From Patescibacteria group bacterium (lineage in GTDB: Bacteria > Patescibacteriota > Patescibacteriia > 2-02-FULL-49-11), in contig JBAZQN010000007.1 of the NCBI GenBank assembly GCA_041645165.1, forward strand, positions 8,318 through 72,317: 64,000 nt of DNA, in the 5' to 3' direction. Shown piece by piece: positions 6,835 to 60,843 of this stretch (position 1 is its first letter; every line of letters begins with the position of its first letter). The notes beneath the pieces were generated by a model that was given only the letters and a program-made list of their open reading frames with translations, ran no database searches and had not been told where the DNA came from. A program made the position numbers and the translations under genes.

Positions 6835-7045
6835 TAAATTAATCAGCCATATCCGTCTTATCCCATCCTATCCGACTTATCCGTTCCTATCCGATCCATT
6901 CCGCTTATCCGTCTTATCCCAATATCTCCGACTTATCCGTTCCTATCCGATCCATTCCGCTTATCCGTCTTATCCCACCTATCCGTCTTATCCCAACCTC
7001 TCAAATCTAATCAACCTATCAGACCTATTCTGACTTATCCGTCTT
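6835..7045. repeat. pyrimidine-rich TATCC-type repeat array phased at about 10 bp, including a ~57-bp tandem duplication
   Basis: cttatccgt / cctatccga / ccattccgc units recur roughly every 10-11 bp. gacttatccgttcctatccgatccattccgcttatccgtcttatccca occurs twice in tandem. Confidence 0.8.
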
Positions 7046-8039: not shown

Positions 8040-8240
8040 AATCCAACCACCGACTTACCCGTTCCTATTTCAACTTATCTCATCCCATCCGATCAATCCA
8101 ACTTATCCGTTCCTATCCGACCTATTCCACTTATCCAGATCTATTCCAGTCTTTGCAATCCAACCACCAACATATCCATTCCTATCCGTCCTATCCCATC
8201 CTATCCGACCTATCCACTCTTATCCGCCTTATAATCCTAT
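8040..8240. repeat. second TATCC-type phased repeat array
   Basis: ccgttcctat, cttatccgttcctatccgacctattccacttatcc and cctatccgtcctatcccatcctatccgacctatcc, homologous to 6835-7045. Confidence 0.75.
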
Positions 8241-8304
8241 CCGCCACCCCCATTCCATCCTCCAACTTCCAGCTTCTATATTCTAACTTCTCCTCTCGCT
8301 CCCT

Positions 8305-8618: not shown

Positions 8619-8817
8619 TAAAGCTTCAATTCAAAATCAATTACTCACTTCAATCTTCTAACTCCTATCTTCCATCTTCCAGCTTCTAAATTCTATCTTC
8701 AAGATTCCAACTTCCATCTTCCAACTTCCCTTTCCTCCACAACTCATCAACTCAAAAACTCACAAACTAACTAATTGACTGATCAACTGATAAACCGACC
8801 AACTGACAAACTGAAAA

Positions 8818-10290: not shown

Positions 10291-10324
10291 GACAATTAAT
10301 CTCACGATCGTGAAAATAATTGTT
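10291..10324. repeat. 34-bp palindrome family, copy A (GACAATTAATCTCACGATCGTGAAAATAATTGT)
   Basis: Perfect CACGATCGTG core flanked by inverted AT-rich arms. See copies at 13947, 14266, 14368, 14632 and 15342. Confidence 0.85.
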
Positions 10325-10770
10325 CTCTCTTCTCTAAAATAACTGCTTATTGAGTACTACTCTTGCGCAACCCTCTGCACTCAACTCCTTCAGTGAGGTT
10401 GCCTGCAAAAAAGTGTCTCGGAGGATTTGCGGGCACGGTCTCCGACCTCACGTCGGAGGAGCAAATCCGAGAGTCAAGTGGCCAACTCCTCGCAGGGGAA
10501 TTGGACCGCGTCTTTTTCTGCAGGCAATCCGAACGCTAGCCCCCATTGCTCCATTGCCAATTATGAATCGGGACGCACTCCAAAATCCTCCCCCTATGGC
10601 TTCGCCATATCTTGATGATAAAAAGAGGGAGGTTAGGTGAGGGTGTCTGTCGCAAATAAGTATATGCCACTTTTCCCATTGCCCACACCATAATTTTCTG
10701 TTAAGGTAACTTAATCCAAAAACTTAATAAACAGTGAACTTTTAAAATTTATCCAAAGAAAGGACGGTGT

Positions 10771-13946: not shown

Positions 13947-13980
13947 GACAATTAATCTCACGATCGTGAGGATAATGTCC
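13947..13980. repeat. 34-bp palindrome family, copy B
   Basis: gacaattaatctcacgatcgtgaggataatgtcc. Confidence 0.85.
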
Positions 13981-14045
13981 CTTCCTGTACATTACCTCTC
14001 TCGACAATATCACATTTCCATAAAATTTTCTGTCCATATTCATAT

Positions 14046-14265: not shown

Positions 14266-14304
14266 GACGACAATTAAAAATACGATCGTGACAATAATGT
14301 CCCC
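14266..14304. repeat. 34-bp palindrome family, copy C
   Basis: gacgacaattaaaaatacgatcgtgacaataatgtcccc. Confidence 0.8.
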
Positions 14305-14367
14305 TTGTCTTTCCCCACTTCCCGAATATGCCATCTTCCTACTTCTATTATTGCCTTTTTCAAGAGA

Positions 14368-14631: not shown

Positions 14632-14666
14632 GCAATTATTTTCACGATCGTGAAAATAATGTCCCT
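14632..14666. repeat. 34-bp palindrome family, copy E
   Basis: gcaattattttcacgatcgtgaaaataatgtccc, immediately 3' of the PaaX-like gene. Confidence 0.85.
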
Positions 14667-14698
14667 TCACCTTTTTCTATTTTCCTTGCGTCGCATTA

Positions 14699-16207: not shown

Positions 16208-16302
16208 CAATTAATTTTCAATATCACAATGTTTGAACATTAGGTCATTGGGATTTATTTGAAAATTGAGAATTGAAAATTGAGAATTGAAAATTACACA
16301 TT

Positions 16303-20359: not shown

Positions 20360-20488
20360 CCAAGTGCATAAATCCCAAATCCCAATTTCCAATGACCAAT
20401 AAAATCCCAATGTTTCAATGATCAAGTTTGGACATTTGGATTTTGAGCTTTATTGGGAATTGGGATTTGGACATTGGGATTTTCTCTT

Positions 20489-22564: not shown

Positions 22565-22796
22565 TTCAAATCCATAATTTTCAAGGTTCAATTTTGCAAT
22601 TTTTCCCCCGACTTGTCGGGGGATCCCGCTGCGGCGGGACAATCAATGTTACAATGATCCAATTTTCCAATGTTTGAAAATTGTCGCATTGAAAATTATT
22701 TGAAAATTGAGCACTGGGAATTGAAAATTATCAAGGTTGGGATTTATTTGGACACTGGACATTGGAATTTGGAAATTGAAATACACTCATTACTTT

Positions 22797-24047
22797 ATGA
22801 CTCTCCTCTCTCCCCTCTCCATCTCCTACCGCACCTTGAAGGCCCACAAAGTGAGATCGCTGCTCACGGTACTTGGCCTCATGATCGGTGTCATGTCAAT
22901 CATTCTCGTCATGAACATGGGGCAGGGCATCAAGCATTTCGTATTAAGCGAAGCATCGGCCTTTGGTACCGATTTTATCCAAATTGAAATCAAGGTGCCT
23001 TCCACGAAACATACCTCCAGCGAAAACGCCATGGGGCTCGCCCAGGGCATTACCATCACGACGCTGAAGATAAAAGACGCGGAACAGATAGCGAAACACC
23101 CTAATATCAAAGGCTATTACGCGAACCAAATGGGTCAGGAGATTGTGAGCACTGACATGGATGATAAAACGGCGATGCTCTGGGGTGTGTCAGCGCAGTT
23201 TTTTGGCCTGTATCAAGCGCAGGTGGCAGAAGGCCGCCCTTTTACCGATGAAGAAGACAAATCCCAGGAACAAGTGGCGGTCATCGGCACCGCTTTAAAA
23301 AAAACATTATTCAATGATGATGCCGCGCTCGGCAAGAAGATAAAAGTGGGAACGACGAAATTTACCGTCATCGGCGTCATGGAGGAGCAAGGAAGCTACT
23401 TTGGGTTCCTTGATATGGATAATATAGTCTTCTTGCCAGTGAGAACCCTGCAGAAAAAAATTATGGGCATTGACCACCTCCAGTCCATCACCGCATATTT
23501 GAAAGACCCTAATCTCGCGCATGCCACCGCAGAAGACATAACCGGCATCCTGCGTGAACAGCACGCGATTACTGATCCTAAAAAGGACGACTTTTCGGTC
23601 ACCACCATGGATGATGCGCTTGCCATGATCAACACCATCAGCGGCGGCATCACGCTCTTGCTTGTCGCGATCGCCGCCATCTCCCTTTTGGTGGGCGGCG
23701 TGGGCATCATGAACGTGATGTATGTGTCGGTGTCAGAGCGCACGTATGAAATAGGGCTGCGCAAGGCGGTGGGAGCGACAGAAAAAGCAATCCTTTGGCA
23801 ATTTTTATGGGAAGCGATTTTCTTGACATTTTCCGGAGGGCTTGTCGGCGTGACCTTAGGCACGCTCCAAAGTTTCGCCGTCACCTATGCGGCAAGGTAT
23901 GCAGGAATTGACTGGGGCTTCCAATTTTCCTGGGGAGGCGTGGCGCTCGCGGTATGTTTTTCCGTGGTGGTCGGCCTCATCTTCGGCATTTATCCCGCGC
24001 GCAAAGCATCCCGCATGCAGCCAGTCGAAGCCCTAAGGCAAGAATAA
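22797..24047 (+). CDS. second ABC transporter permease, FtsX/MacB family
   Basis: Same architecture (GLRKAVGATEKAI...). The internal ATG at 22797 is preferred because the annotated upstream region lies in a repeat. Confidence 0.8.
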   Translation: MTLLSPLSISYRTLKAHKVRSLLTVLGLMIGVMSIILVMNMGQGIKHFVLSEASAFGTDFIQIEIKVPSTKHTSSENAMGLAQGITITTLKIKDAEQIAKHPNIKGYYANQMGQEIVSTDMDDKTAMLWGVSAQFFGLYQAQVAEGRPFTDEEDKSQEQVAVIGTALKKTLFNDDAALGKKIKVGTTKFTVIGVMEEQGSYFGFLDMDNIVFLPVRTLQKKIMGIDHLQSITAYLKDPNLAHATAEDITGILREQHAITDPKKDDFSVTTMDDALAMINTISGGITLLLVAIAAISLLVGGVGIMNVMYVSVSERTYEIGLRKAVGATEKAILWQFLWEAIFLTFSGGLVGVTLGTLQSFAVTYAARYAGIDWGFQFSWGGVALAVCFSVVVGLIFGIYPARKASRMQPVEALRQE

Positions 24048-24107
24048 TTTTCAAGGCAAAAATAAAAACCATATCATACCCTGATATGGCATCTTGTTCC
24101 GTTAAAA

Positions 24108-24202
24108 CTATTCACCTATTTCCGCCATAGGCGGACAAGCGCGCCTGCCCCGCTCGCCACGTTGCATAACTGTGGCCGCATGGCTGGGGCGAATTAGAGA
24201 AG
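24108..24202. repeat. ~95-bp direct repeat, copy 1 (ctattcacctatttccgccataggcggac...ggctggggcgaattagagaag)
   Basis: About 95% identical to 26699-26792. It contains the hairpins ccgccataggcgg and gcccc..gccac..gtggc..ggggc. Confidence 0.85.
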
Positions 24203-24222
24203 GTAAATGAAATAATTCGTGT

Positions 24223-24990
24223 TTATTTGGTTTTCTCATCCCTTCCCAGCGATTCCCACAGTGACCAAAATAAGAAACACAAAATTTGCGCAATTGGTAC
24301 ACTCTCAATCACTATCGCTTGTGGTACTTTCTCAAACGAGACCAGGACAATTTTATCACCACAGAGACAGAAGATGGAATTGAACGTAATTGGTTTAGAC
24401 AAAAAGCGATACTCGCGGAATAACGTGTCGCCTTCCTGAAACCGTTTCTCACTAATCAAATTACGATCGGTAATCGCATAGAGCTTTGACCCACCAATCT
24501 GGCGGCGTTTTTTTGTAAATTTTTTAAGGATCTGCGCCAACGTCGTGTGTGCAAGTACTGTATTTCCCGAGTACACAAAAAGAAGATCATGCCGATCATG
24601 GAGGAGCTCGCTCCCCAGTTTCCACAGAGACATCACGCCTTCATATATTCTCACGTGCGGCATCGTCGCCGGAGACGCGGCAGCGAGTGCTTGCAATCGC
24701 GGCAAAGCTTTCATAAGGCTATTTTCTTTTGCTTCAATTTCAGCCTTCTGCGCGCGGACAAGTTTTAACAATTCTTCCGGATCGACCGCGCTGTAAGCTT
24801 TCTTGCCCTTTTTAACGCTCACTTCGATAACCCCAAGCTTAATGAGTCGCTCCAAGCAAAAATACACAGTGGGACGTTTAATACCCGAAATTTGGCTGAT
24901 TTCCCTAACTTCACTCGCTCCAAGCTTAAGCAAGGTGGTAAAGATACTTGCCTCTTTCTGTGATAATCCCAATTTTTCTAGAATTTTCAT
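24223..24990 (-). CDS. TrmB-family transcriptional regulator
   Basis: N-terminal wHTH (LSQKEASIFTTLLKLGASEVREISQISGIKRPTVYFCLERLIKLGVI) and a TrmB-like C-terminal domain. The annotated ORF begins at a TTG (25017); the first ATG (24990) is preferred. Confidence 0.6.
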   Translation of the reverse strand: MKILEKLGLSQKEASIFTTLLKLGASEVREISQISGIKRPTVYFCLERLIKLGVIEVSVKKGKKAYSAVDPEELLKLVRAQKAEIEAKENSLMKALPRLQALAAASPATMPHVRIYEGVMSLWKLGSELLHDRHDLLFVYSGNTVLAHTTLAQILKKFTKKRRQIGGSKLYAITDRNLISEKRFQEGDTLFREYRFLSKPITFNSIFCLCGDKIVLVSFEKVPQAIVIESVPIAQILCFLFWSLWESLGRDEKTK

Positions 24991-25225
24991 ATTTCTGTTA
25001 GTAACCGCTGACAACATTGATATCTTATTCTTTTGCTTAAATTAGTCAAATTTTCCGTGCCTTGTCCATGTAATGAAAAAATATTTCAGTACCTATTGTT
25101 AATAGAGCAGCAATGGAAGAAGCTGATAGTGATAAATTCACAACATTCTGTCATTCCGGACCTGATCCGGAGAATCCAGAAAAACAAATCACGTCAAATG
25201 AACCTTAACAAAAGGAGATGAGAAA

Positions 25226-26593
25226 ATGAAAAAGAGAGTATTGTTTTTGCAATTCACGATCGGTACACTAGACCGTGGATATTGGAATCCTCTTGGTTTG
25301 GCTCCGCATGATTATTTCTACGCGGAGCCAGGTGTCGCTTGGGTGGCACAAGCGATCGCGGCCGACCACGAAGTCCAAGTGATCGACTGCGACTTCTTGA
25401 ACGATGAGGAAGTGTTGTCCTCAATCGCCCAATTTGGTCCCAATATCGTCGGATTTTCCTGCTTCACCGCAGGATATCCACGAGCACAGAGGATTACCTG
25501 GTTAATTAATTCGGCAATTGTGAAACTTTGGGGCGGTTGGCACGCATCAATGATCTCGGCGCAAGTGCTCGCGGAGAACCCAAATTCTATCGTAGTCAAG
25601 GGAAGAGGCGAGGGAGTTATTCGAGATATCGTGAATTCGCCCCGGCACTACACCGGAACAATTATCGATGGGAACGCGATTCCAGCGCCGCGACATTATC
25701 CCTTCTCCGTGGTTACGCGGACGCCGTATTTTAAATTCTTCGGCGTTCCACCGGAACAAAAAACAGCTTCTGTCGTTATTTGCGGAGGCTGCACTTTAGG
25801 GTGCAGCTATTGCCCATCGGCCAGATCTGGTCTCGGGTTTATGCGATCCCCTGAAGATATCATTCACGAAGTAATACAGCTCGAAGAACGAGGAGTCAAC
25901 TTTATCTTTGTTCGAGATGAAAATCCCTTCCTCCTCAAGTTTCGACCATGGTTGCTCCGCTTCTGTGATCTCGCCGAACGAACAATTCGTGGACGGGTTC
26001 AATTCCATTCATTCGGCGACGCACGCTTTGTCGACACAGAACTCGTTCAAGCACTGGCAGGAGCAGGATGGAGCGGTTTGGATATCGGGATAGAACACAT
26101 CACCGCTGCGGGTCGCAAACGCTTAGGAAGAAAACAGGACTGGTGGAAAACCGTCGAGGCGTTCGAAATGATGAAGAATAAGGGTTTATTTTTGACCGCA
26201 AATTTCATTGTCTGGGCTCCTGGAGATACTCTTAAAACATTTAACCAAACACTACTGGGTCTTAAGGAACTCCGACCTGACGAATTACTGCCGCTATTTT
26301 TCACTCCTTTACCAGGATTGGCCGATGGCAAGTTTGACAGTCTTCCAAGGCGAACCCAACGATTGGAGGATTTTCATTTTTTAAAACCAATTCTGGTAAA
26401 TGACGCACAAGTAACCGATGAGGAGCTCATCGTACAGAGGAAACTCCTCATGCGAAATTATTACTCTTCATCTGAATATATAGCTTTAATGAAATTCCGA
26501 AGACGACAATTCGGAGACCAGCGGTTCAAGAATCTCACCGCCATCCGCCGGCAAAGGTTCTTGAAATACGGCATTGATCTATGGAACCTTTAG
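25226..26593 (+). CDS. B12-binding-domain radical SAM enzyme (class B rSAM family)
   Basis: N-terminal cobalamin-binding Rossmann-like domain and the CxxxCxxC motif CTLGCSYC in the radical SAM core. Strong RBS aaaaggag. Confidence 0.7.
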   Translation: MKKRVLFLQFTIGTLDRGYWNPLGLAPHDYFYAEPGVAWVAQAIAADHEVQVIDCDFLNDEEVLSSIAQFGPNIVGFSCFTAGYPRAQRITWLINSAIVKLWGGWHASMISAQVLAENPNSIVVKGRGEGVIRDIVNSPRHYTGTIIDGNAIPAPRHYPFSVVTRTPYFKFFGVPPEQKTASVVICGGCTLGCSYCPSARSGLGFMRSPEDIIHEVIQLEERGVNFIFVRDENPFLLKFRPWLLRFCDLAERTIRGRVQFHSFGDARFVDTELVQALAGAGWSGLDIGIEHITAAGRKRLGRKQDWWKTVEAFEMMKNKGLFLTANFIVWAPGDTLKTFNQTLLGLKELRPDELLPLFFTPLPGLADGKFDSLPRRTQRLEDFHFLKPILVNDAQVTDEELIVQRKLLMRNYYSSSEYIALMKFRRRQFGDQRFKNLTAIRRQRFLKYGIDLWNL

Positions 26594-26602
26594 TAAAAAA
26601 CG

Positions 26603-26636
26603 TCCGCATATAGTACGATCGTATTATAGACGGACG
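26603..26636. repeat. near-perfect 34-bp palindrome gtccgcatatagtacgatcgtattatagacggac, sharing the ACGATCGT core
   Basis: Its reverse complement differs at a few positions. It has the same architecture as the CACGATCGTG family (GC-rich outer arms, AT-rich inner arms). Confidence 0.6.
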
Positions 26637-26650
26637 TTTCCTAAACAGCA

Positions 26651-26688
26651 AAGACCGCTACAATATACGCAGCGGTCTTATTTTTTAC
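26651..26688 (+). terminator. intrinsic terminator after the rSAM gene
   Basis: agaccgctacaatatacgcagcggtct hairpin followed by TATTTTTT. Confidence 0.55.
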
Positions 26689-26698
26689 ACTATTCCCC

Positions 26699-26792
26699 TA
26701 TTCCCCTATTTCCGCCATAGGCGGACATGCGCGCTCGCCCCGCTCGCCACGTTGCATAACTGTGGCCGAATGGCTGGGGCGAATTAGAGAAG
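26699..26792. repeat. ~95-bp direct repeat, copy 2
   Basis: ctattcccctatttccgccataggcggacatgcgcgctcgccccgctcgccacgttgcataactgtggccgaatggctggggcgaattagagaag. Confidence 0.85.
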
Positions 26793-26829: not shown

Positions 26830-27360
26830 CTATGGTGAGAATCCCGCATCAATGATGCGCTTGGCTTCAGTGAGAAACGCCAGTTCCCGCGCGTGGATGA
26901 ATATGCCAAAATAATTGTCCACTTTCTCACCGCGTATCACATTGATGGCTTCCTCAAGCCCCATCCACTGGATTTCAAGCCCTTTCTCTTTCTCATCCTG
27001 GGTAAGCTGCGGCTCTTGTAGCTCGCCCACCGACCGCGCTATCCAACAATACGAATCCCTCATTTGCCGCGCGCGATCGCGATACTCGATGACGCGCCCC
27101 ACTTCATGGAGCAGAGTGACTTCACAGCCCACTTCCTCGCGCAACTCCCTCTTCAGCGACGCGGCAATTGATTCGCCGTCTTCCACGCCGCCGCCCGGCA
27201 GCTTGTGGTAACCGCGGTTTTTAATGTACACAAGCGCAATCTTTTGCACGGAATTAATCACGACCGCACGCACCGAGAGCTTACGATCATTATATATTCC
27301 ATGCCGCGTATCAGCGTCTTTCAACAAATCACGATCATGAATCTCTTGCAGTAGCTTCAT
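26830..27360 (-). CDS. NUDIX hydrolase
   Basis: Nudix box GGGVEDGESIAASLKRELREEVG. Confidence 0.8.
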   Translation of the reverse strand: MKLLQEIHDRDLLKDADTRHGIYNDRKLSVRAVVINSVQKIALVYIKNRGYHKLPGGGVEDGESIAASLKRELREEVGCEVTLLHEVGRVIEYRDRARQMRDSYCWIARSVGELQEPQLTQDEKEKGLEIQWMGLEEAINVIRGEKVDNYFGIFIHARELAFLTEAKRIIDAGFSP

Positions 27361-27376: not shown

Positions 27377-27724
27377 TTATAATTTTGTATATTTTGTATT
27401 CTTCCCCTTTGATTTCTCTATGGGATATTTCGCTTCGTTTTTCCTGATTTTTTTCTGCGCGGCGGTGATCAGGTCAATGCCGAGCTTATCGCTCAACATT
27501 AGCAGGTAAACCAGCACATCTGAAAGTTCATCGCTCACTTCGCCCTTCTGGGCATCGAGGTATAGAGCGAGCTCTTCTCCATTTTTCCATTGAAAATGCT
27601 CTAGGACTTCAGCAGCCTCCAACACAAGCGAAATGGCAAGATCTTTGGGATTATGGTACTGATCCCAATCCCGGGCATTGGTAAATGCGCGTATTTTATT
27701 AAGAAGAGTCTCTATTGAGTCCAT
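27377..27724 (-). CDS. MazG-like nucleotide pyrophosphohydrolase (single-domain)
   Basis: 115-aa all-alpha protein with EAAEVLEHFQWK and DELSDVLVYLLMLSDKLGIDL motifs typical of the MazG/dCTPase family. Confidence 0.6.
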   Translation of the reverse strand: MDSIETLLNKIRAFTNARDWDQYHNPKDLAISLVLEAAEVLEHFQWKNGEELALYLDAQKGEVSDELSDVLVYLLMLSDKLGIDLITAAQKKIRKNEAKYPIEKSKGKNTKYTKL

Positions 27725-27831: not shown

Positions 27832-28950
27832 TCATGCAAGCACTGCATTACGCGATAAAACATTTACGATGCCGTGATCCGCGTCAACCTCGACCAAATC
27901 TCCCTGTTGCAGTATGGAGGTTGCGTTCTGTGTGCCGACAATGCACGGTTTCTTCAATTCCCGGCAAATAATCGCCGCATGGGTGAGTACGCCGCCAAGA
28001 TCAGTCACTACCGCGATTGCCTGCGTGATGAGGGTGATGTACTCTGGCGTGGTCATAGTGCACACCAACACTTCATTCTCTTTAAATATTCCTTCCTGCA
28101 CGCGCGCTTCAGGCACGATGCGCACGCGGCCTTGCACGACCCCTCCATGCCCTATGTGGCCCTTGAGTGTAGCTTTAACCCCTACGTCAACATGATGGTG
28201 CAGAATCTGGAATTCGCTGTAGAGCGATCCCAACAGCCTATTATAATCAAGAAACCATATCCCGGATTCCTCCACGGTCACGGTTTCAAAATAACCCTGC
28301 AAATAATTATTTGAAAATAAAGCTCCCAATTTCTGTTGCAGCACATCCTGGATATGCCTCTCTTCTACCAAAAGGTGCTTCATGATAGCCAGCAAATGCT
28401 GCTGCGCCTCCTGATCATCTCCGCTTAATGTCCACTCACGCCAATCAAAAGAGAATGTGAGAGGCACCTGTTCAGCGTAAAACCCCTGCGTGAGCTGATA
28501 GTGGCCTCCGCGAATGATTTCTCCGCAAATACCATATGCATTGACGACGAAAATGGTTGACCACAGCGTGGTTTTATGGGAAACAAAATCTGCCCTGTAG
28601 TTCACCGGTTCAATCTGCTGCGCATGGAACCATGCCACGGCCTCTTTTACCGTATGCCCCCGCATGCGCAGCTTAGGCAAAGAAGGGTCAAGGGGAATGA
28701 GCCTTAACGCGCATAGTTCGTCACCCCGCGCGGCAAAGAATTCCTGAAATAGGGCGCTCTGCGAAGCAATATCCATTGCCGAAAATTGCACAGGCCTGTC
28801 AAAGGGAAGCCCGATCACTTCATTGAGCACCTTCATCCGTTCACGCTTTTCATTGTCTTCCTCGCGGAAAGCCCTTGCCTTTTCATGGCCGATTTTCTCC
28901 AGCCATTCCGTCAAAGAAATCTGCGTCTGGTAAAGTTTCGTAATATCCAT
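27832..28950 (-). CDS. PEP-utilizing-enzyme mobile (swivel) domain protein
   Basis: C-terminal VVTDLGGVLTHAAIICRELKKPCIVGTQNA is the phosphohistidine swivel-domain signature. The N-terminal ~250 aa are unassigned. Confidence 0.5.
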   Translation of the reverse strand: MDITKLYQTQISLTEWLEKIGHEKARAFREEDNEKRERMKVLNEVIGLPFDRPVQFSAMDIASQSALFQEFFAARGDELCALRLIPLDPSLPKLRMRGHTVKEAVAWFHAQQIEPVNYRADFVSHKTTLWSTIFVVNAYGICGEIIRGGHYQLTQGFYAEQVPLTFSFDWREWTLSGDDQEAQQHLLAIMKHLLVEERHIQDVLQQKLGALFSNNYLQGYFETVTVEESGIWFLDYNRLLGSLYSEFQILHHHVDVGVKATLKGHIGHGGVVQGRVRIVPEARVQEGIFKENEVLVCTMTTPEYITLITQAIAVVTDLGGVLTHAAIICRELKKPCIVGTQNATSILQQGDLVEVDADHGIVNVLSRNAVLA

Positions 28951-29423: not shown

Positions 29424-30713
29424 ATGAACAAAATCCAACCAACGATTCTCAAAGGAACCCGCGATGTGCTCCCTCCGCAAATGATACAGCGCAATGCGGT
29501 CATGGAAACCATGCGTAAGACTTTTGAAAGTTTCGGATATGCACCGATTGAAACGCCGATAATTTGCCCTGCGGAGACCATTTTGGGCAAATATGGCGAA
29601 GAAGGAGACCGGCTCACCTATTCATTCAAAGACCGAGGGGGAAGGCTCATCGCGTTGCCATATGATTTGACGGTGCCCTTCGCGCGTTTTTTCGCGGCAA
29701 ATTATCAAAAATTGCCTTTTCCTTTCAAGCGCTACCAAATGCAGCGTGTGTGGAGAGCGGAAAAACCGCAAAAAGGTCGCCTGCGCGAATTTTACCAGTG
29801 CGATATTGACATCATCGGATCAAAAAGCCTGATCTGTGAAGCAGAAATTGTCAAAATTATCGCGGTAGTATTTGAAAAACTGGGAATTCGAAACATCGTG
29901 ATCAAGGCGAACTCAAGACGGCTGATGAATGCAATATTGCAGTCTTATGGCATTGATCAAGACAATGCGGTATCAGTCATTCGCATAATCGACAAAATGA
30001 CAAAAATCGGGAAGGATTCTGTAATATCAGAATTGAAAAAAATGGGGGTAAACGACGCCGAAAAAATAATCAAAACGCTTTCTCCTGAAGATACAAACGC
30101 AAACACGCTGAAAAAACTAGCCGCGTACGACAGCTCCTCTTTGGAAGAATTTTTAGCTTACTGTAATACCCTTGGCGTACCTGAAAAATGCCTCCAAATT
30201 GATCCGACGCTGGCGAGAGGGCTCGATTACTATACTGGGCTTACCTTTGAGGCGGTGAGCGAGAATACGGATTTCGGATCAATATGCGCCGGCGGCCGTT
30301 ATGACGATCTCTGCGGCATTTTCTCTGATAAAAACTTTTCCGGAGTCGGCGTCGCGTTCGGTTTTGAACGGATCATGCTATTGCTCGAACAACTGCGGCT
30401 TTTACCCAACGGCAGCGCACCGTCGCAAGTTCTCGTGACTATTTTTGATAAAAATTCAATCCAAGAAGCGCTGCAGATTTATAACAGGCTCATTGAAGCC
30501 GGCGTCGCGGCGGAAATTTACTTTGAACCTGAAAAGCTGTCAAAACAATTCAAATTCGCGGATAAAAAACAAATTCCGTTTGTGCTTATTCAGGGGCCTG
30601 ATGAGAGGGGAAAAAGTGAAATTACCGTCAAACGAATGCAAAACGGAAAACAGAAAACTTTGCCGGTAAGCCAATTAATTTCCTATCTAGGAAATTTCTA
30701 TGAAACGAAATAA
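29424..30713 (+). CDS. hisS: histidyl-tRNA synthetase-like protein (HisRS motifs plus an anticodon-binding domain) at the head of the his operon; possibly doubles as HisZ
   Basis: Motif 2 WRAEKPQKGRLREFYQCD, motif 3 GGRYDDL, and a C-terminal anticodon-binding-like domain. Its 14-nt overlap with the short-form hisG is the position HisZ normally occupies. Confidence 0.6.
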   Translation: MNKIQPTILKGTRDVLPPQMIQRNAVMETMRKTFESFGYAPIETPIICPAETILGKYGEEGDRLTYSFKDRGGRLIALPYDLTVPFARFFAANYQKLPFPFKRYQMQRVWRAEKPQKGRLREFYQCDIDIIGSKSLICEAEIVKIIAVVFEKLGIRNIVIKANSRRLMNAILQSYGIDQDNAVSVIRIIDKMTKIGKDSVISELKKMGVNDAEKIIKTLSPEDTNANTLKKLAAYDSSSLEEFLAYCNTLGVPEKCLQIDPTLARGLDYYTGLTFEAVSENTDFGSICAGGRYDDLCGIFSDKNFSGVGVAFGFERIMLLLEQLRLLPNGSAPSQVLVTIFDKNSIQEALQIYNRLIEAGVAAEIYFEPEKLSKQFKFADKKQIPFVLIQGPDERGKSEITVKRMQNGKQKTLPVSQLISYLGNFYETK

Positions 30714-31320
30714 TATCAGGATCGCAATTCAGAAAGAAGGGCGGCTTAAAAACCCGAGTCTTGAGTTTCTTGAATCTTTAGGCCTTCAATTTTCCAAAGC
30801 CAGCGGCAGAACGCTTGTCGTGCCCTGCGAGAACGTTGATGTCGAAATTTTGTATGTGCGACACAGCGATATACCGCAGTATCTCCAGAGCGGAGCGGCT
30901 GATTTTGCCGTTGTCGGCGGCAATGTGCTGTATGAAAATAATTTTAACATAAGAGAAATAAAACAACTGGATTTTGGCATATGCAGTTTGGTGATCGCCA
31001 TACCAATCGACTCTCCCATTCAAAAAACACAGGAGCTTGAAGGAGAACGTATCGCAACGTCTTATCCAAACAGCTTGCGCAAATTTTTACAAAAACAAAA
31101 AATCAATGCGTCCATCATTGAAATAACGGGCTCCGTTGAAGTTGCGCCCGCGTTGGGGCTTGCAGATGCGATTTGCGATCTTACACAGACAGGGAATACG
31201 CTCAAAGAAAACGCTCTGAAACCGATAGAAACATTATTTGATTCTATGGCTGTATTCATTGCGTCGCCGTTTGAAAGCAGGCAGAAGAGTGGATTTATCA
31301 ATAAATTTTTAACCCAATAA
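30700..31320 (+). CDS. hisG: ATP phosphoribosyltransferase, short form
   Basis: 206 aa (HisG_S length). MKRNNIRIAIQKEGRL...DLTQTGNTLKENAL. Confidence 0.85.
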   Translation: MKRNNIRIAIQKEGRLKNPSLEFLESLGLQFSKASGRTLVVPCENVDVEILYVRHSDIPQYLQSGAADFAVVGGNVLYENNFNIREIKQLDFGICSLVIAIPIDSPIQKTQELEGERIATSYPNSLRKFLQKQKINASIIEITGSVEVAPALGLADAICDLTQTGNTLKENALKPIETLFDSMAVFIASPFESRQKSGFINKFLTQ

Positions 31321-31322
31321 AT

Positions 31323-31577
31323 ATGATTGAACTAATTGGATACACAGCAGCATTTCTTACGGCATCTGTTATGATACCTCAAATTGCTAGATCAATTCGC
31401 ACGAAAAGCGTTGGAGATATCTCGTTTATGATGTTGGCTTTATACATTACAAATACAGGATTATGGGTAACTTATGGCGTTCTCATAGGGGCTGGACCTG
31501 TTGTCGTAGCAGATAGTTTTGCTTGCTGTGCTGGAATTACACAATTAATTATAAAATTAAAATACAATAAATTATGA
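31323..31577 (+). CDS. SemiSWEET / PQ-loop small membrane transporter
   Basis: 84 aa, three predicted TM helices, PQ motif (MIPQIARSIRTKS) in TM1. It is embedded between hisG and hisD with 2-nt gaps. Confidence 0.55.
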   Translation: MIELIGYTAAFLTASVMIPQIARSIRTKSVGDISFMMLALYITNTGLWVTYGVLIGAGPVVVADSFACCAGITQLIIKLKYNKL

Positions 31578-32860
31578 AAAAATATTACTTCAAGCAACTT
31601 GACGACGTCTTATTAAAAAACCTTTGCGAAAGAAAGGCAATCCGTTTTGATGACGTTTTGCCCGTTGTTAAAAACATACTGGATAAAGTAAAAAATAATG
31701 GCGATGAAGCTGTGGGTGAATTTACGCAAAAATTCGACAAAGTTCACCTTTCGTCTCTCGCCGTAACTCAACAGGAAATTGATCGGGCTTGCAAGCGCAT
31801 TCCGACAAACATTCAAAATGCTTTCGCACAAGCGGCGCGTAATATTGAGAAATTTCACAAATCACAATTGGTTAAACGGATAAAAGTGGAAACAGCAGCG
31901 GGGGTTACCTGTTTTACAGAGACGAGGCCGATTGAAAAAGTCGGATTATACATTCCGGGCGGCACCGCTTCCCTGCCTTCCACAGTGCTCATGCTTGCAA
32001 TTCCTGCAAAGCTGGCGGGATGCGGGGAAATCGTGCTGGTGACCCCGCCCGCTAAAGACGGAAACGTCCCCGATGTTATATTATTCGCCGCCACGCTATG
32101 CGGAATTGCGCGAATCTATAAAATTGGCGGCGCACAAGCTATTGCGGCGCTTGCGTTCGGCACGGAAAGTATACCAAAGGTGTACAAAATTTTCGGTCCT
32201 GGCAATCAGTACGTCACCGCTGCAAAGATGCTTGTTTCCATCGATCCTGAAGGCGCTGCTATTGATATGCCCGCGGGCCCGACGGAGGTGCTGGTGATTG
32301 CCGATGAAAGCGCGCGAGCCGATTTTGTGGCAGGCGATCTTTTGGCGCAAGCGGAGCACGGTGCTGATTCGCAGGCGATACTCATTGCCACTTCCGACAA
32401 GAAAGCTGACGAGGTTTCAGATGAAGCGTATCGGCAACTACAAACCCTGCCGCGAAAAGAGACTGCTCAAAAATCTTTGAAAAACAGCTTCGCCATCATT
32501 GTCAATTCTATGAATGAGGCCCTTGCATTCTCCAACAGATATGCGCCGGAACACCTTATCTTGAATGTGAAAAACGCCTTCAGGTACGTGCCAAAAGTGG
32601 AAAGCGCCGGTTCCGTATTTTTAGGTCCGTACTCCTGTGAATCAGCCGGGGATTATGCAAGCGGTGCCAATCACACGTTGCCGACGTATGCGCGAGCCCG
32701 CGCCTCCGGAGGCGTCTCGGTAAGTAGTTTTCAAAAACAAATAACCTTTCAAAAAGTGACGAAGCAAGGCGCGAAAAATATAAACCCTCTCGTGTCCACC
32801 ATGGCCGGTCAAGAATCGCTTGAGGGGCACAAAAGAGCCATGCAATTGCGTTTAGAATGA
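31574..32860 (+). CDS. hisD: histidinol dehydrogenase
   Basis: 428 aa. The HisD length plus motifs IGGAQAIAALAFGTESIPKVYKIFGPGNQYV and EHGADSQ. Confidence 0.9.
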   Translation: MKKYYFKQLDDVLLKNLCERKAIRFDDVLPVVKNILDKVKNNGDEAVGEFTQKFDKVHLSSLAVTQQEIDRACKRIPTNIQNAFAQAARNIEKFHKSQLVKRIKVETAAGVTCFTETRPIEKVGLYIPGGTASLPSTVLMLAIPAKLAGCGEIVLVTPPAKDGNVPDVILFAATLCGIARIYKIGGAQAIAALAFGTESIPKVYKIFGPGNQYVTAAKMLVSIDPEGAAIDMPAGPTEVLVIADESARADFVAGDLLAQAEHGADSQAILIATSDKKADEVSDEAYRQLQTLPRKETAQKSLKNSFAIIVNSMNEALAFSNRYAPEHLILNVKNAFRYVPKVESAGSVFLGPYSCESAGDYASGANHTLPTYARARASGGVSVSSFQKQITFQKVTKQGAKNINPLVSTMAGQESLEGHKRAMQLRLE

Positions 32861-32870
32861 CTGTTATAAT

Positions 32871-34436
32871 ATGAGGAATCTCGCACTGGATAGAATCCGA
32901 AAGATGAAACCGTATATACCACCATTAGACGGCCGATTTATGTATGGTGGAATGCTGCTGGATTTCAGTGAGAACACATTATCATCCCGAAGTAAGGTCG
33001 CTCAAGCACTGAATAAATTTGTGAAGGAGAGAAAACTGCATATCTATCCCGAGTATTATAATTTGGAAGAAATAATCGCAAACTACGCGGGAGTGAATGC
33101 AAATCAGATAATGATCACCAACGGTTCCGACCAAGGAATTGACGTTATCTTTCGCACATTCACCGATAAGGGGAGCAAGGTCATCATTCCGCGCCCCAGC
33201 TTCGCCATGTTTTACCAATGCGCCCAAGTGGTCGGTAATGAAGTGGTGCGCCCCGCATATCGAGAGGAAGATCTTTCATTTCCGTTGGATGAAGTGCTTA
33301 ATTCGATTGATGACGAGGTAAGGCTCGTGGTGGTGTGCAATCCCAACAATCCTACGGGTACCGCCGTATCCGTTGCCGACATTGCAAAAATCGCACGTAA
33401 GGCGAAGGAGGCGATCATTTACGTCGATGAGGCATATTTTGAATTTTCAAAGATCACCGCTCTGCCACTCATTAATAGATTTCCTAACATCGTCATCACG
33501 AGGACTTTTTCGAAAGCATTCGGTCTCGCCTCCATGAGAATCGGCTACGTCATTGCAAGAAAAGAATATATATCCGAAATGCTGAAAGTGCGCGGTCCTT
33601 TTGATATCAATATGGCCGCGTACTATACCGCCAGTGCCGCACTTGAGGAGAAACAAAATATGCAACGTTACGTTGATGAAGTCATGCAGCGCGCAAAACC
33701 GTTTGTGGAAAAATTCTTTTCCCAAAATGCCATACCATATTTCTCCTCTTGTGCAAATTTTATTCTGTTTCGTCCAGACAATCCCGCCCGCGTCATGACA
33801 CAACTTCGTAGGGGCGGTGCGCTGGTGAGACCGCAAACTCAAAAAGGGGTGGAAAACACTTTACGGGTAAGCATTGGCACCGCTGATCAAATGCAGAAAT
33901 TCGTGGAGATTTATAAAAAATTCGTTCTGAGCAACTCTCAACAAAAATATGCATTTCTTGATCGTGACGGCACACTGATATATGAACCACAAACCACGTA
34001 TCAAATCGACAGTGTAAGGAAACTAAAAATCCTTGACGGCGCGATAAAAGGACTGCAAGAACTGCAAAAAAGGGGTTATTCATTAATAATGATTTCCAAC
34101 CAGGACGGCTTGGGCACCTCGTCATTCCCTCGTAAGAATTTTAAAGCTCCACAAGAGAAGATGCTGAATATTTTCCGCAAAAAGGGAATAACTTTTGAAC
34201 GGATATTCATCTGCCCTCACCTGCCGCATGAGGCGTGTACTTGCCGGAAACCAAAAATGGGACTGGTGGATGCGTATTTGAGGAACTCAAATTTTGATAA
34301 AAACCTGTCATTGGTGTGCGGAGACAGAAAAAGCGACCGGCAGTTCGCAAAAAATATCGGCCTTACATTCGTCTTTATGGAGACGAACGGCAATTTTTAC
34401 GAAGCAATTAAATCAGTGCTAACCGAATCTCTATGA
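32871..34436 (+). CDS. hisC: histidinol-phosphate aminotransferase fused to a HAD-type histidinol-phosphatase domain (HisC-HisN/HisB-N fusion)
   Basis: The N-terminal ~350 aa are a class-II aminotransferase (TRTFSKAFGLASMRIGY). The C-terminal ~165 aa have HAD motifs FLDRDGTL, ISNQDG and GDRKSD, as in the HisB N-terminal phosphatase. Confidence 0.75.
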   Translation: MRNLALDRIRKMKPYIPPLDGRFMYGGMLLDFSENTLSSRSKVAQALNKFVKERKLHIYPEYYNLEEIIANYAGVNANQIMITNGSDQGIDVIFRTFTDKGSKVIIPRPSFAMFYQCAQVVGNEVVRPAYREEDLSFPLDEVLNSIDDEVRLVVVCNPNNPTGTAVSVADIAKIARKAKEAIIYVDEAYFEFSKITALPLINRFPNIVITRTFSKAFGLASMRIGYVIARKEYISEMLKVRGPFDINMAAYYTASAALEEKQNMQRYVDEVMQRAKPFVEKFFSQNAIPYFSSCANFILFRPDNPARVMTQLRRGGALVRPQTQKGVENTLRVSIGTADQMQKFVEIYKKFVLSNSQQKYAFLDRDGTLIYEPQTTYQIDSVRKLKILDGAIKGLQELQKRGYSLIMISNQDGLGTSSFPRKNFKAPQEKMLNIFRKKGITFERIFICPHLPHEACTCRKPKMGLVDAYLRNSNFDKNLSLVCGDRKSDRQFAKNIGLTFVFMETNGNFYEAIKSVLTESL

Positions 34437-35023
34437 AATCAAGAACGGCAACAATCAGGCGCAAGACGATGGAAACGGATATAACTGTAAATGTGAATCT
34501 CGACGGTACGGGCAAATACCGGGTGGATACCGGCATCGGCTTCCTGAATCACATGCTGGAGCTTTTTTCCAAGCATTCATTGATAGATCTCACCCTGAAA
34601 GCGAAAGGCGATGCGAAGGTGGATGAACACCACACTATTGAGGACGTCGGCATCTGTCTCGGCAAGGCGCTGCGCAAGGCTTTAGGGGATAAGAAAGGCA
34701 TTGAGCGGTATGGATTTCTGCTGCCGATGGACGAAGCTCTGACCGAAGCCGCAATTGATTTGGGCGGAAGGCCTTATCTTGTGTGGAACGTTTCTTTTAA
34801 GCGGGAAATGATCGGAGACATGCCGACAGAGCTTTTCGAGGATTTCTTCAAGGCAGTGGCCGATAACCTTCAAGCGAATATCCACCTCAATGTAAAATAC
34901 GGCAGGAATGAACACCACATCGCGGAAAGCGTCTTTAAGGCGCTCGCAAGATGCTTGAGGTCTGCAGTGAGCCGCCAAACTCGCACGAAAAAACTATTAC
35001 CCTCTACCAAAGGAAAACTATGA
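34433..35023 (+). CDS. hisB: imidazoleglycerol-phosphate dehydratase
   Basis: 196 aa with the IGPD conserved His/Glu clusters (DEHHTIED, HHIAES). Confidence 0.85.
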   Translation: MKSRTATIRRKTMETDITVNVNLDGTGKYRVDTGIGFLNHMLELFSKHSLIDLTLKAKGDAKVDEHHTIEDVGICLGKALRKALGDKKGIERYGFLLPMDEALTEAAIDLGGRPYLVWNVSFKREMIGDMPTELFEDFFKAVADNLQANIHLNVKYGRNEHHIAESVFKALARCLRSAVSRQTRTKKLLPSTKGKL

Positions 35024-35610
35024 TTGCCATAATCAATTACAAGGCCGGCAATGTCGCGTCAGTGAAAAATGCGCTGGAACGGCTGGGGAGCGCGTGCACC
35101 GTCACATCCGATCCGGAGGAAATTCTATCCGCTGATGGCGTGATTTTCCCTGGCCAAGGCAGGGCAGGCGCCGCTCTGTCAGAACTGCAAAAGGCACGCA
35201 TTGATACCGTTATCCCTCGAATCACCAAGCCGTTTTTAGGCATTTGTTTAGGGATGCAGCTCCTTGGACGCTTTTCCGAAGAAGATAACACAAAATGTCT
35301 CGAGGTGTTTCAGGGTATAAGTCGCAAGTTTCCGCCGACGCTCAAAACCCCGCACCTCGGCTGGAATAAAGCAGAACTCACGAAAAAATCCCCCCTCACG
35401 GCGGGTATCACGAACGGATCGTACTTTTATTTCGTGCACTCATATTACATGGATGCTACGGAGGATCAAACGGCGGGGACAACGAGTTATGGTTTTGATT
35501 TCACTTCAATCATGCAAAAAGACAACTTTTTTGCCGTCCAGTTCCACCCAGAAAAATCCGGCGCGCAGGGCTTGCGATTGCTTACTAATTTTTACGAATT
35601 ATGCTTGTAA
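35020..35610 (+). CDS. hisH: imidazole glycerol phosphate synthase, glutamine amidotransferase subunit
   Basis: MIAIINYKAGN start and GICLGMQLL nucleophile-Cys context. It overlaps the hisB stop (ATGA). Confidence 0.8.
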   Translation: MIAIINYKAGNVASVKNALERLGSACTVTSDPEEILSADGVIFPGQGRAGAALSELQKARIDTVIPRITKPFLGICLGMQLLGRFSEEDNTKCLEVFQGISRKFPPTLKTPHLGWNKAELTKKSPLTAGITNGSYFYFVHSYYMDATEDQTAGTTSYGFDFTSIMQKDNFFAVQFHPEKSGAQGLRLLTNFYELCL

Positions 35611-37076
35611 TACCAGCCATTGATATTGTCGGCGGCAAATGCGTGCGCCTCACGCAGGGCGATTTTGCCAAAAGCACCCTCTACAGCGCGAATCCGGCTG
35701 ATGTCGCGAAAGATTTTGAACGTCAGGGTACGCGATTTCTGCATGTCGTGGATTTGGACGGCGCCAGAACAGGTTTTCCGGTGAATTCGGAAACAATTCT
35801 TTCCATCGCAAAATCGGTCGGCATTCCGATCCAAATCGGAGGAGGAATCCGCTCCTACGATCAGGCACGCGGGTATCTTGAGGGCGGCGTCTCGAAAATC
35901 GTTTTAGGCACCGCGGTTATTGAGAATCCAAAAATGCTAGAGCGCGTGTCCAGGGATTTTGGTAAGTCGCGTGTTACGGTCTCTGTCGACATAAAAGATG
36001 GAAACGCTGCCACTTGCGGGTGGCTGAAAAAGAGCACTGAAACCGCTCCTGCACTCATTGCCGCTCTCAAAAAAATAGGTATTGCGTCCGTGATAGTAAC
36101 CGACACTTCAAAAGACGGCCTGCTCCAGGGTCCGAATTTTGGTTTGACAAAGCTGTTTATTGATGAAGGTTTTGAGACTATCGCGGCCGGAGGCGTGACC
36201 TCTTTATCCGATATTAGGGAGTTTACCAAACTTGGCGCGTATGGCGTTATCGTGGGGAAAGCGATCTATGAAAATAAGATTGATATGCGAAACGCGCAGC
36301 GCGAAGCGGCGTACAAAAGCAGCTTGGCAAAAAGAATAATCCCGTGTTTGGATGTAAAAAATGGACGCGTGGTAAAGGGCACTTATTTTACGAATCTGCG
36401 CGATGCCGGCGATCCCGTTGCATTGGGAAAAAAATATTGCCAGCAAGGAGCCGATGAGCTCATTTTATTGGATATTGCGGCAACGTTAGAAAGCCGCAAA
36501 ACGTTTTGCGATCTGGTATCGGCAATAGCGCGTGAGATAAGCATACCATTTACCGTAGGCGGCGGGATCACCACCATAGAAGACATTCGTAAACTGCTGA
36601 GTGTCGGGGCAGACAAAGTTTCCATCGGGACCGCGGCAGTGAGAAATCCCCGTTTTATCAAAGATGCGGCCGCATATTTTGGTTCGCAATGCATTGTTAT
36701 TTCAATTGACGCAAAAAGGCAGAATGAAGACTTCATAATTTACATAAAGGGCGGGACGGAAAAAACAGAGATGGACGCCGTGGCTTTTTCCAAACAAATG
36801 GCGCAGTATGGCGCCGGCGAGCTTCTGGTAAATAGTTTGGATCGCGACGGGACCCAAAAAGGATTTGATGTTGAGCTGTTAAAAAGAGTTACCGACAGCG
36901 TATCCATACCGGTGATTGCTTCAAGCGGCGCAGGCTCAATGAGGGATTTCTTGACGGTCTTTGAAAAAACAAACGTAGATGCGGCTCTTGGCGCGAGCAT
37001 TTTTCATTCTCAAGAGAAGAGCATCATGGAACTTAAAAGGTTTTTATCCAGCAATAACATACCTATACGCCTATGA
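35601..37076 (+). CDS. hisA: HisA-HisF fusion (ProFAR isomerase plus IGP synthase cyclase subunit)
   Basis: The N-terminal half is HisA-like (LVIPAIDIVGGKCVRL). The C-terminal half is HisF-like (RIIPCLDVKNGRVVKG...). Both are (beta/alpha)8 barrels in one 491-aa ORF. Confidence 0.8.
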   Translation: MLVIPAIDIVGGKCVRLTQGDFAKSTLYSANPADVAKDFERQGTRFLHVVDLDGARTGFPVNSETILSIAKSVGIPIQIGGGIRSYDQARGYLEGGVSKIVLGTAVIENPKMLERVSRDFGKSRVTVSVDIKDGNAATCGWLKKSTETAPALIAALKKIGIASVIVTDTSKDGLLQGPNFGLTKLFIDEGFETIAAGGVTSLSDIREFTKLGAYGVIVGKAIYENKIDMRNAQREAAYKSSLAKRIIPCLDVKNGRVVKGTYFTNLRDAGDPVALGKKYCQQGADELILLDIAATLESRKTFCDLVSAIAREISIPFTVGGGITTIEDIRKLLSVGADKVSIGTAAVRNPRFIKDAAAYFGSQCIVISIDAKRQNEDFIIYIKGGTEKTEMDAVAFSKQMAQYGAGELLVNSLDRDGTQKGFDVELLKRVTDSVSIPVIASSGAGSMRDFLTVFEKTNVDAALGASIFHSQEKSIMELKRFLSSNNIPIRL

Positions 37077-37756
37077 ATACCGTTAAAAATGCGAAAAAAA
37101 ACGTACTAAAACCTGTTCAGGTTAATATCTCTCATGGGGTAGATAAACTCAACACCGAACGATTGGATTTCGAGAAACTTAGCGGGATCATACCTGCTAT
37201 CATTCAAGATGCCGACACCAAGCTCGTGCTTATGCTGGGTTTTATGAATAAAGACGCACTGAACAAAACAATAAAAAACAGAAAGGTGACTTTTTGGAGT
37301 AGGACAAAAAAACGGCTATGGGAAAAAGGGAAATCTTCTGGCAATACGCTTAAGGTGCTCTCCATTGCCACAGATTGCGACCACGACACGCTTTTGATTT
37401 TAACAAAGCCGCAAGGGCCTGTCTGCCACACCGGTGCCTATTCTTGTTTTGGAGTAAAAAAACAAGAGCGATCTGATTTTTTGAAGGAACTCTATGACCT
37501 GATCGCCACAAGGAAAAAAGAATTGCCGATACGTTCTTACACCACCTCTCTTTTTAACCAAGGGCTGGGTAAAATACTGAAAAAGGTTAAGGAAGAATCC
37601 GGTGAAGTAATACAGGCTGCGAAAAAAGAGTCAAAAACACGGCTCATCGAAGAAAGTGCCGATCTCGTCTATCACTTATGGGTGCTGTTGGCTGAAAAAA
37701 ACATCTCAATCTGCGATCTCCTTACTGAACTCAAACGCAGAAGAAAAGGCGGTTAA
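37073..37756 (+). CDS. hisI: bifunctional phosphoribosyl-AMP cyclohydrolase / phosphoribosyl-ATP pyrophosphatase
   Basis: HisI core (TFWSRTKKRLWEKGKSSGNTLKV...CDHDTLL) plus a C-terminal HisE/MazG-like domain (KILKKVKEESGEVIQAAK). Confidence 0.8.
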   Translation: MNTVKNAKKNVLKPVQVNISHGVDKLNTERLDFEKLSGIIPAIIQDADTKLVLMLGFMNKDALNKTIKNRKVTFWSRTKKRLWEKGKSSGNTLKVLSIATDCDHDTLLILTKPQGPVCHTGAYSCFGVKKQERSDFLKELYDLIATRKKELPIRSYTTSLFNQGLGKILKKVKEESGEVIQAAKKESKTRLIEESADLVYHLWVLLAEKNISICDLLTELKRRRKGG

Positions 37757-58085: not shown

Positions 58086-58129
58086 AATCTTATTAAGGTA
58101 TTTGCCCCCTTATCTATACTCAACTTCAC

Positions 58130-58417
58130 TCAATCAATCATAATGCCTATATTATGCAATTGTTTCTTTGGGTCCCAATTTTCTGGTTCATTGTCTATCT
58201 TATCTCTCCATGGCATTCCCTCCTCTATCCACTTTTTACGCAATTCCAAATGCCGTTTCTCGCGCTCTTGCGCAGTCTTACCGAAATCATGATATCCATA
58301 TTGTATATGACAACATGGGCAAATATTATCGGACTGACTGTCTCCCTTCCATGCAGGCTCATGATAAACCGAATATATATCGTACCCGCATACCGGGCAA
58401 TAAGAATCGTTAGTCAT
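58130..58417 (-). CDS. small Cys-rich (zinc-ribbon-like) protein, candidate immunity protein
   Basis: CPVCG...CPCC. Its start is 3 nt after the stop of the upstream RHS-CT cassette. Confidence 0.4.
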   Translation of the reverse strand: MTNDSYCPVCGYDIYSVYHEPAWKGDSQSDNICPCCHIQYGYHDFGKTAQEREKRHLELRKKWIEEGMPWRDKIDNEPENWDPKKQLHNIGIMID

Positions 58418-58420
58418 ATC

Positions 58421-59656: not shown

Positions 59657-59696
59657 TGACGTTGCCGCGTGGGGATTGGCGGTTTCAGTGTCGGAA

Positions 59697-60842: not shown

Positions 60843-60843
60843 A

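Follow-up and report, generated by a model that had tools for sequence, protein, structure and literature searches.

A small palindromic double-hairpin repeat, probably a dispersed DNA element, flanks a TrmB-radical SAM gene pair in a Patescibacteria group bacterium

In a 64,000-nt stretch of DNA from a Patescibacteria group bacterium (assembly GCA_041645165.1, contig JBAZQN010000007.1, positions 8,318 to 72,317; hereafter the window), two copies of a 95-nt hairpin-containing repeat, R1 and R2, bracket a gene pair that encodes a TrmB-family regulator and a radical S-adenosylmethionine (rSAM) enzyme with a cobalamin domain. We conclude, with a probability of roughly 0.6, that R1 and R2 are copies of a small non-coding palindromic double-hairpin repeat, a selfish or dispersed DNA element comparable to miniature inverted-repeat transposable elements (MITEs) or to REPINs, which are doublets of repetitive extragenic palindromic (REP) sequences. 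Members of this element family also occur in other uncultured bacteria from groundwater and other environments, where the loci are unrelated. Its members are palindromic in architecture, the sites in related genomes that lack the gene pair also lack the repeat, and the ends of the insertions and deletions (indels) that distinguish these genomes do not coincide with the repeats. If this interpretation is right, the bracket reflects where a small selfish repeat happened to lie, or its local duplication, and not a new recombination system.

Results

Two copies of a double-hairpin repeat

The first-pass annotation, made from the window sequence, had described two ~95% identical, hairpin-containing copies of ~95 bp lying 2.6 kb apart, and this description holds. 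R1 (24108-24202) and R2 (26698-26792), both assigned to neither strand, are identical at 90 of 95 positions and lie in direct orientation with a start-to-start distance of 2590 nt. R1 begins with a conserved 5' module (24108-24147) that includes hairpin 1 (24121-24135), followed by a long, lineage-specific hairpin 2 (~24147-24191) and a conserved 3' module, AATTAGAGAAG (24192-24202). In R2, hairpin 1 is found at 26711-26725, hairpin 2 at ~26737-26781 and the 3' module at 26782-26792; one additional 8-nt unit, CTATTCCC, is present at its left edge (26690-26697). Hairpin 1 of each copy is a 6-bp stem, TCCGCC-ATA-GGCGGA, and hairpin 2 is longer and imperfect, GCCCCGC...GCTGGGGC. A 29-mer out of the repeat core occurs exactly twice in the window, with none expected from shuffled sequences, and neither nhmmer --max nor blastn-short found a third copy, whole or partial, in ~72 kb of the source contig (the window plus an extra 8 kb, L086).

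Both copies reside in convergent intergenic gaps, R1 between FtsX2 and TrmB and R2 between the rSAM gene and a NUDIX gene. Being direct repeats, the copies cannot serve TrmB and rSAM alike as 3' elements in the same sense. A Logan contig assembled independently from another run (L002, 2618 nt) corresponds exactly to the block, and both of its ends break within the repeat. We considered L002 as an excised circle and rejected the idea, since such ends are expected of a de Bruijn assembler at a 32-nt exact repeat in which k-mers collapse.

The 5' end of the repeat (CTATTCNC CTATTTCC) is similar in flavour to short periodic low-complexity repeats found in other intergenic regions of the window, at 6850-6999, 8071-8243, 8648-8729, 16259-16295, 20377-20425 and 22660-22790. 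These have periods of 7-9, 14, 19 and 28 nt (TATCCGTCT and TTGAAAATTGAGAA are examples), and comparable tracts are seen in relatives, such as GTAGAGAATAGAGAAT in the FtsX2-NUDIX spacer of the related contig L091.

Members of the family at unrelated loci

As a search pattern we used the 24 specified bases of the 5' module at positions common to R1, R2 and the copies in the related contigs L089 and L090 (CCTATTTN{0,1}CGCCNNAGGCGGACANGCGC). Four loci in JGI metagenome contigs matched it, namely L095, a positive control on the same contig as L090, and L093, L094 and L096, which have no genes in common with the window. The nhmmer E-values of the loci found in this way range from 2e-14 to 1e-13. In an alignment of the six full copies (A2), 44 columns are invariant and correspond to the 5' module and the 3' AATTAGAGA. 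The consensus of the 5' module is TATTC-N-CCTATTTCCGCC-NNN-GGCGGACA-R-GCGCGC-YTG; the host contigs vary between 37 and 52% GC, yet the 5' modules differ at just 1-9 of 46 positions. The element has terminal inverted repeats, with pairing in 90% of cells over eight terminal positions (TTCNC/GAGAA and ATT/AAT).

The middle of the element, ahead of the 3' module AATTAGAGAA, is occupied by a second hairpin that differs in sequence and length by lineage. Its stem is CCTGCC/GGCAGG in L094, ACCGCC/GGCGGT in L096 and a different one in L093, and the window and L090 share the long form GCCCCGC...GCTGGGGC. In L094 and L096 the element as a whole, ~66 nt long, reads as a near-perfect palindrome around a GCGCGC centre; it folds into a single long hairpin and is matched by nhmmer on both strands. 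Each arm of this short form carries a short hairpin, TCCGCC-NNN-GGCGGA, and the ends read TATTCNCCTATTT... and ...AATTAGAGAA. From this comparison, we interpret the window and L090 copies as a subfamily in which the right-arm hairpin has been replaced by a longer one.

The genomic contexts of the family include convergent, tandem, divergent and intragenic-antisense positions. The L093 copy lies between two genes on the same strand, encoding a DNA methylase and a protein with peptidoglycan-binding and immunoglobulin-like domains, and the L094 copy in a 1-kb divergent gap that separates a LexA-S24-methylase fusion from TspO. The L096 copy is located within the miaA open reading frame (ORF; 186-1247), antisense and in frame, at one of 353-436 and 797-864. 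The encoded MiaA aligns to MiaA structures in PDB on both sides of the copy, with a net gain of 11 residues there. An exact look-up for an insertion-free allele did not find this protein in the collection.

Compared with solved MiaA proteins, the L096 gene has two in-frame hairpin-forming insertions (L096:353-436 and 797-864). One of them is the full repeat copy. The other has no relation to it and is an imperfect palindrome of 84 nt, with many CGAAT motifs, that adds ~27-29 residues, and the pair is reminiscent of the palindromic elements of Rickettsia. Methylase genes adjoin the copies in L093 (1463-2335) and L094 (1477-2937, fused to LexA and S24 peptidase domains), probably by coincidence; an association of the repeat with DNA methylases was rejected, the two PF01555 methylases being unrelated beyond the motif.

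An exact 20-mer of the repeat core had no match in GTDB species genomes, JGI metagenomes or IMG/VR; the source genome is outside these collections, and the result says little on dispersal. A second scan of viral contigs, using the family pattern, also gave no match. The first-pass annotation had named occurrence at many unrelated sites, as an ordinary dispersed repeat, as one outcome that would overturn its proposal. The three unrelated metagenome loci go part of the way to that outcome.

Filled and empty sites among relatives

The contigs of relatives were retrieved with the two flanking proteins as anchors. These are FtsX2, a MacB-type ABC permease (22797-24047, plus strand; 416 aa as called in the public record), which forms the left conserved flank, and the NUDIX hydrolase (26830-27360, minus strand), which forms the right one. 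Three hairpins in addition to the repeats serve as landmarks. T1 (24069-24089, no strand assigned) lies between the FtsX2 stop codon and R1 and is likely the terminator of TrmB, because a T-run follows it on the minus strand. H (26598-26639, no strand assigned), directly after the rSAM stop codon, is likely the NUDIX terminator for the same reason. T2 (26651-26687, plus strand), a terminator-like hairpin with a T-run between H and R2, is likely that of the rSAM gene. The repeats had been said to enclose exactly the gene pair; they do bracket TrmB and rSAM, but H and T2 also lie between the rSAM stop codon and R2.

Two of the contigs come from relatives that carry the block. In L089 (FtsX2 96% identical at the amino acid level), FtsX2 and T1 are followed by the left 48 nt of R1 alone (~87% identical) and then by the 3' end of TrmB; at this same site there is no right half of R1, the part with hairpin 2. 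L090 (NUDIX 88%) contains the 3' end of the rSAM gene, H, T2, a copy of R2 and NUDIX, and this R2 ortholog has a 7-nt deletion in hairpin 2 and 9 substitutions.

In the other two, FtsX2 and NUDIX are convergent neighbours. The 196-nt spacer of L091 (FtsX2 93%, NUDIX 86%), in which the two genes are directly convergent, has neither a repeat nor a trace of the block; a comparison with block and repeat gave just a shared 9-mer, CCCCGCTCG (E=1.7). The 103-nt spacer of L097 (FtsX2 94%, NUDIX 89%) is essentially hairpin H, 90% identical to window 26594-26643; R, T2 and the block are all missing from it. Congeners are therefore polymorphic for the TrmB-rSAM block, which the window, L089 and L090 carry and which L091 and L097 lack. 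The first-pass annotation had proposed as a check that an empty site should show a single repeat copy, and there is none in L091 or L097.

The differences between the window and L097 call for two or more separate indels, [T1-R1-TrmB-rSAM] on the left side of H and [T2-R2] on its right. Hairpin H lies inside the R1 to R2 span yet is kept in L097, so the end points of the indels are not the repeats. The rSAM fragment and NUDIX are similarly diverged between the window and L090 (81-88% at the nucleotide level), which fits vertical co-inheritance and not a recent insertion. The element itself is more conserved than the adjoining spacer in this comparison. R1 and R2 differ from each other at 5 of 95 positions, against 9 of 88 between either of them and the L090 ortholog; the difference hints at gene conversion between R1 and R2, in numbers too small for a conclusion.

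The FtsX2-NUDIX spacer is a hot spot at which gene content changes between strains. The site is organised differently again in a more distant relative (L088 and L092, from one metagenome-assembled genome (MAG); FtsX2 86%). A remnant of the C-terminal part of an IS200/IS605 TnpA (…FWSRGYFVRTVGIDEETVKRYI…) directly follows FtsX2 there (L088:11324-11530, minus strand), preceded by two GC-rich hairpins unrelated to the repeat studied here, and NUDIX in this MAG adjoins a zinc-finger-rich gene that reads as topA-like. Several strain-specific indels are clustered in this 5-kb stretch. A MazG-like gene (window 27377-27724), between NUDIX and a PEP-utilizers gene, occurs in the window strain and not in L090, L091 or L097, and the PEP-utilizers gene of L091 is reduced to a 46-codon N-terminal remnant. 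A set of 80 GTDB loci anchored on HisS gave no empty-site information, the nearest relative being 63% identical and sharing TrpR-HisS-HisG synteny only.

The TrmB-rSAM gene pair

The gene pair itself had been described as a divergent TrmB-family regulator and cobalamin-domain rSAM enzyme, and Pfam bears this out. The regulator (24223-25017, minus strand, 264 aa) is a winged helix-turn-helix protein of which Pfam recognises the N-terminal DNA-binding domain only (PF01978, E=2.5e-18); its scores against NCBIfam equivalogs are all far under cutoff (TrmB and TrmBL1, 25-40 bits against cutoffs of 600-650). The enzyme (25226-26593, plus strand, 455 aa) matches PF02310 (E=4e-12) and PF04055 (E=9e-20), and has an N-terminal B12-binding domain and a cluster motif that reads CTLGCSYC, of the CxxxCxxC type. 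The two genes are divergent with a gap of 209 nt, in which TrmB probably regulates the rSAM promoter. The composition profile did not set the block apart from the rest.

Like BchE, HpnR, PhpK and AprD4, the enzyme combines an N-terminal B12-binding domain with a CxxxCxxC radical SAM core, as is typical of class-B rSAM proteins; it differs from them in scoring far under every curated NCBIfam cutoff. None was reached, with BchE the best at 74.9 bits against 481 and the others lower. The best match in PDB is AprD4 (E=4e-7), and among 1.84 billion cluster representatives just 8 reach E<=1e-30. The enzyme is thus a member of a very small orphan clade within class B.

L003, from a different organism, is the sole closer homolog locus with gene context. 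The TrmB-rSAM pairing is kept there (rSAM 47% and TrmB 60% identical), and a gene for a KAS III protein resembling DpgA and type III polyketide synthases (PKS) is located between the two homologs (L003:542-1477), a possible pathway hint. Another possible hint comes from L004 (11836-14347), and also from L005, where the rSAM homolog adjoins a split PEP-utilizers/PPDK_N phosphotransferase. A link between the rSAM enzyme and the nearby PEP-utilizers protein of the window (27832-28950) had been considered on the basis of the L004 and L005 neighbourhoods and of the PEP-utilizers remnant in L091, and is weakened by L097, which retains that gene without the block. An orphan clade of cobalamin-type rSAM enzymes that travels with a TrmB-type regulator, and in one relative also with a type III PKS/KAS III-like gene, may help the search for its substrate.

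Tests for a structured RNA

Searches against Rfam 15 gave no hit at the gathering threshold in the window, none at E<=10 for R1 and none at E<=1 in seven related loci, and ARAGORN found no tRNA. The fold energies of the copies are better than those of shuffled sequences by just 1.3-2.1 standard deviations (z-scores -1.3 to -2.1). There is no covariation in the conserved helices: no pair has changed on both sides and 12 of 14 pairs are invariant, in what is a weak test with six sequences. The single variable position of the terminal stem is mismatched in four of the six. We read the substitutions in L090 as breaking pairs and not compensating for one another.

Discussion

The interpretation of R1 and R2 as copies of a small dispersed palindromic element accounts for the bracket as follows. 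The element would spread, or have spread, in trans through a transposase that recognises its inverted ends or its hairpins. The R1/R2 pair would have arisen by local duplication, or been kept similar by gene conversion. TrmB-rSAM would be a separate, independently variable accessory module, probably gained or lost through replacement of the whole FtsX2-NUDIX spacer, and the two copies would happen to sit in adjacent convergent, terminator-rich gaps on either side of it.

Several observations weigh against such an element. In classical REP and MITE families, copies number in the tens to hundreds, and here the apparent copy number is low, with two in ~72 kb of the source contig and one match per metagenome contig. 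No clean filled/empty pair was obtained for the element alone, as R2 is gone from L097 together with T2. There is no convincing target-site duplication; TA can be read on either side of several copies, but the flanks are AT-rich and its position is not constant. The window yielded neither a transposase nor a RAYT gene. Finally, the copies are just 2.6 kb apart, for which we roughly estimate a ~7% chance if two copies were placed at random in 72 kb, so that their relation to the block may be local and non-random.

Among known systems, the closest parallels are with MITEs and REPINs; the latter form hairpins and are mobilised by RAYT Y1 transposases. The element resembles both in being short (66-95 nt), non-coding and palindromic or equipped with terminal inverted repeats, with GC-rich hairpins, and in its occurrence mostly in intergenic positions near terminators at unrelated loci of different genomes. 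It differs in its very low apparent copy number, in having no demonstrated target-site duplication and no cognate transposase or RAYT found, in the absence of a GTAG-type REP head, and in the loss of right-arm symmetry in the window subfamily. Rickettsia palindromic elements (RPEs) are selfish palindromic DNA of 100-150 bp inserted in frame in protein-coding genes, with tens of copies per genome. The L096 copy is like them in lying in an apparently intact miaA ORF with the frame unbroken, in a gene that has a second, unrelated 84-nt in-frame hairpin insertion; the host phylum is another one, the sequences are unrelated and one intragenic copy has been seen.

The first-pass annotation likened the architecture to a duplicated att-like site or a cassette boundary. 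On such a reading the repeats would be attL/attR-like sites or cassette boundaries, and the 2.6-kb block either a mobile cassette that had recombined into a resident repeat or a composite unit with a MITE at each end. We consider this highly improbable. Direct repeats do bracket the gene pair, L091 and L097 lack the block that the window, L089 and L090 carry, and a different organism (L003) has a homologous TrmB-rSAM module. However, no repeat copy stands at either empty site, and the retention of H in L097 requires at least two indels whose ends are elsewhere than the repeats. The rSAM and NUDIX genes are about equally diverged between the window and L090, the same element is found elsewhere without the TrmB-rSAM genes, and the 91 nt after the rSAM gene in L003 contain no repeat. 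The earlier statement that no integrase is present holds for the parts covered, as no integrase or other recombinase was found in the publicly annotated parts of the window (1-11.9 and 15.2-36.6 kb) or among ORFs of 140 aa or more between 36 and 64 kb. Integron attC sites and the arrays of them known as CALIN are comparable in being imperfect palindromes with conserved ends and a centre of variable length, placed on the 3' side of genes. All six full copies of our element end in TATTCNCCTATTT and AATTAGAGAAG and have no RYYYAAC or GTTRRRY core sites; furthermore, there is no IntI, the sites are only two, the unit consists of two divergent genes with their own promoters, and the empty sites have no site left. 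Of the first interpretation as a whole, the gene identifications, the lack of a recombinase in the parts covered and the variability of the block between relatives are supported; the cassette-boundary reading and its alternative of paired RNAs at the 3' ends of both genes are not.

A functional structured RNA, for instance a small RNA or a 3'-UTR stabiliser or terminator that is transcribed from the minus strand after TrmB and NUDIX and conserves hairpin 2 as a structure, is in our view unlikely. On the minus strand both copies begin 20-37 nt past a stop codon (of TrmB and of NUDIX) and stand ahead of a hairpin with a T-run (T1 and H), the element has changed less between the window and L090 than the spacer beside it, and hairpin 2 stays a hairpin although its sequence differs by lineage. 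This last pattern is equally expected of a DNA palindrome. The Rfam and folding results, the invariant helices with their one variable stem position unpaired in most sequences, and the disruptive L090 substitutions argue against an RNA, as do the copies in L093, L094 and L096, which are found ahead of genes, between divergent genes or, in antisense, within a coding sequence. It is very unlikely, too, that the repeat is an immobile protein-binding DNA site, such as a nucleoid, insulator or regulatory site occupied by a dimer on the CARGCGCGCYTG palindrome. The central 12-bp near-palindrome and the stem of hairpin 1 are invariant across genomes of different GC content and the apparent copy number per genome is low, as such a site would have it, but one copy lies inside the miaA coding sequence, no neighbouring gene is common to the loci (the adjacent PF01555 methylases of L093 and L094 being unrelated) and there is no tie to TrmB, which the other loci lack.

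The reading of R1 and R2 as a dispersed palindromic element would make them part of an apparently unreported family in uncultured bacteria with reduced genomes, with one in-frame copy in miaA; full-text literature on MITEs and palindromic elements in Patescibacteria and the candidate phyla radiation (CPR) yielded nothing relevant. More speculatively, and as a tentative proposal that we hold to be possible rather than probable, this could be a family, so far undescribed, of mobile double-hairpin palindromes in ultra-small bacteria of the Patescibacteria/CPR type, moving between genomes with very different GC contents and able to settle in frame in essential genes (miaA is one) in the manner of RPEs in Rickettsia, and the flanking pair might promote gain and loss of TrmB-rSAM.

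Other features of the window

A complete-looking histidine operon (hisS, hisG, hisD, hisC/B, IGPD, hisH, hisA/F and hisIE) is found at 29424-37756, and Patescibacteria are usually without amino-acid biosynthesis. The nearest HisS relatives in GTDB are MAGs of Peribacteria and Gracilibacteria with ~60% identity, and the relatives of FtsX2 are labelled Kuenenbacteria and Falkowbacteria. A 36-nt motif, CAATTAATCTCACGATCGTGA..ATAATG, is present in four copies (10293-10328, 13949-13984, 14271-14306 and 14633-14668); it contains the palindrome TCACGATCGTGA and looks like a repeated operator or promoter element. The window further encodes a DUF4143 ATPase (49330-50523) and an AbiEii toxin (50908-51639). 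The region 57280-62451, in which three families of 300-nt and 180-nt repeats, 81-85% identical, lie within RHS-repeat ORFs, looks like an array of RHS C-terminal (toxin-tip) cassettes.

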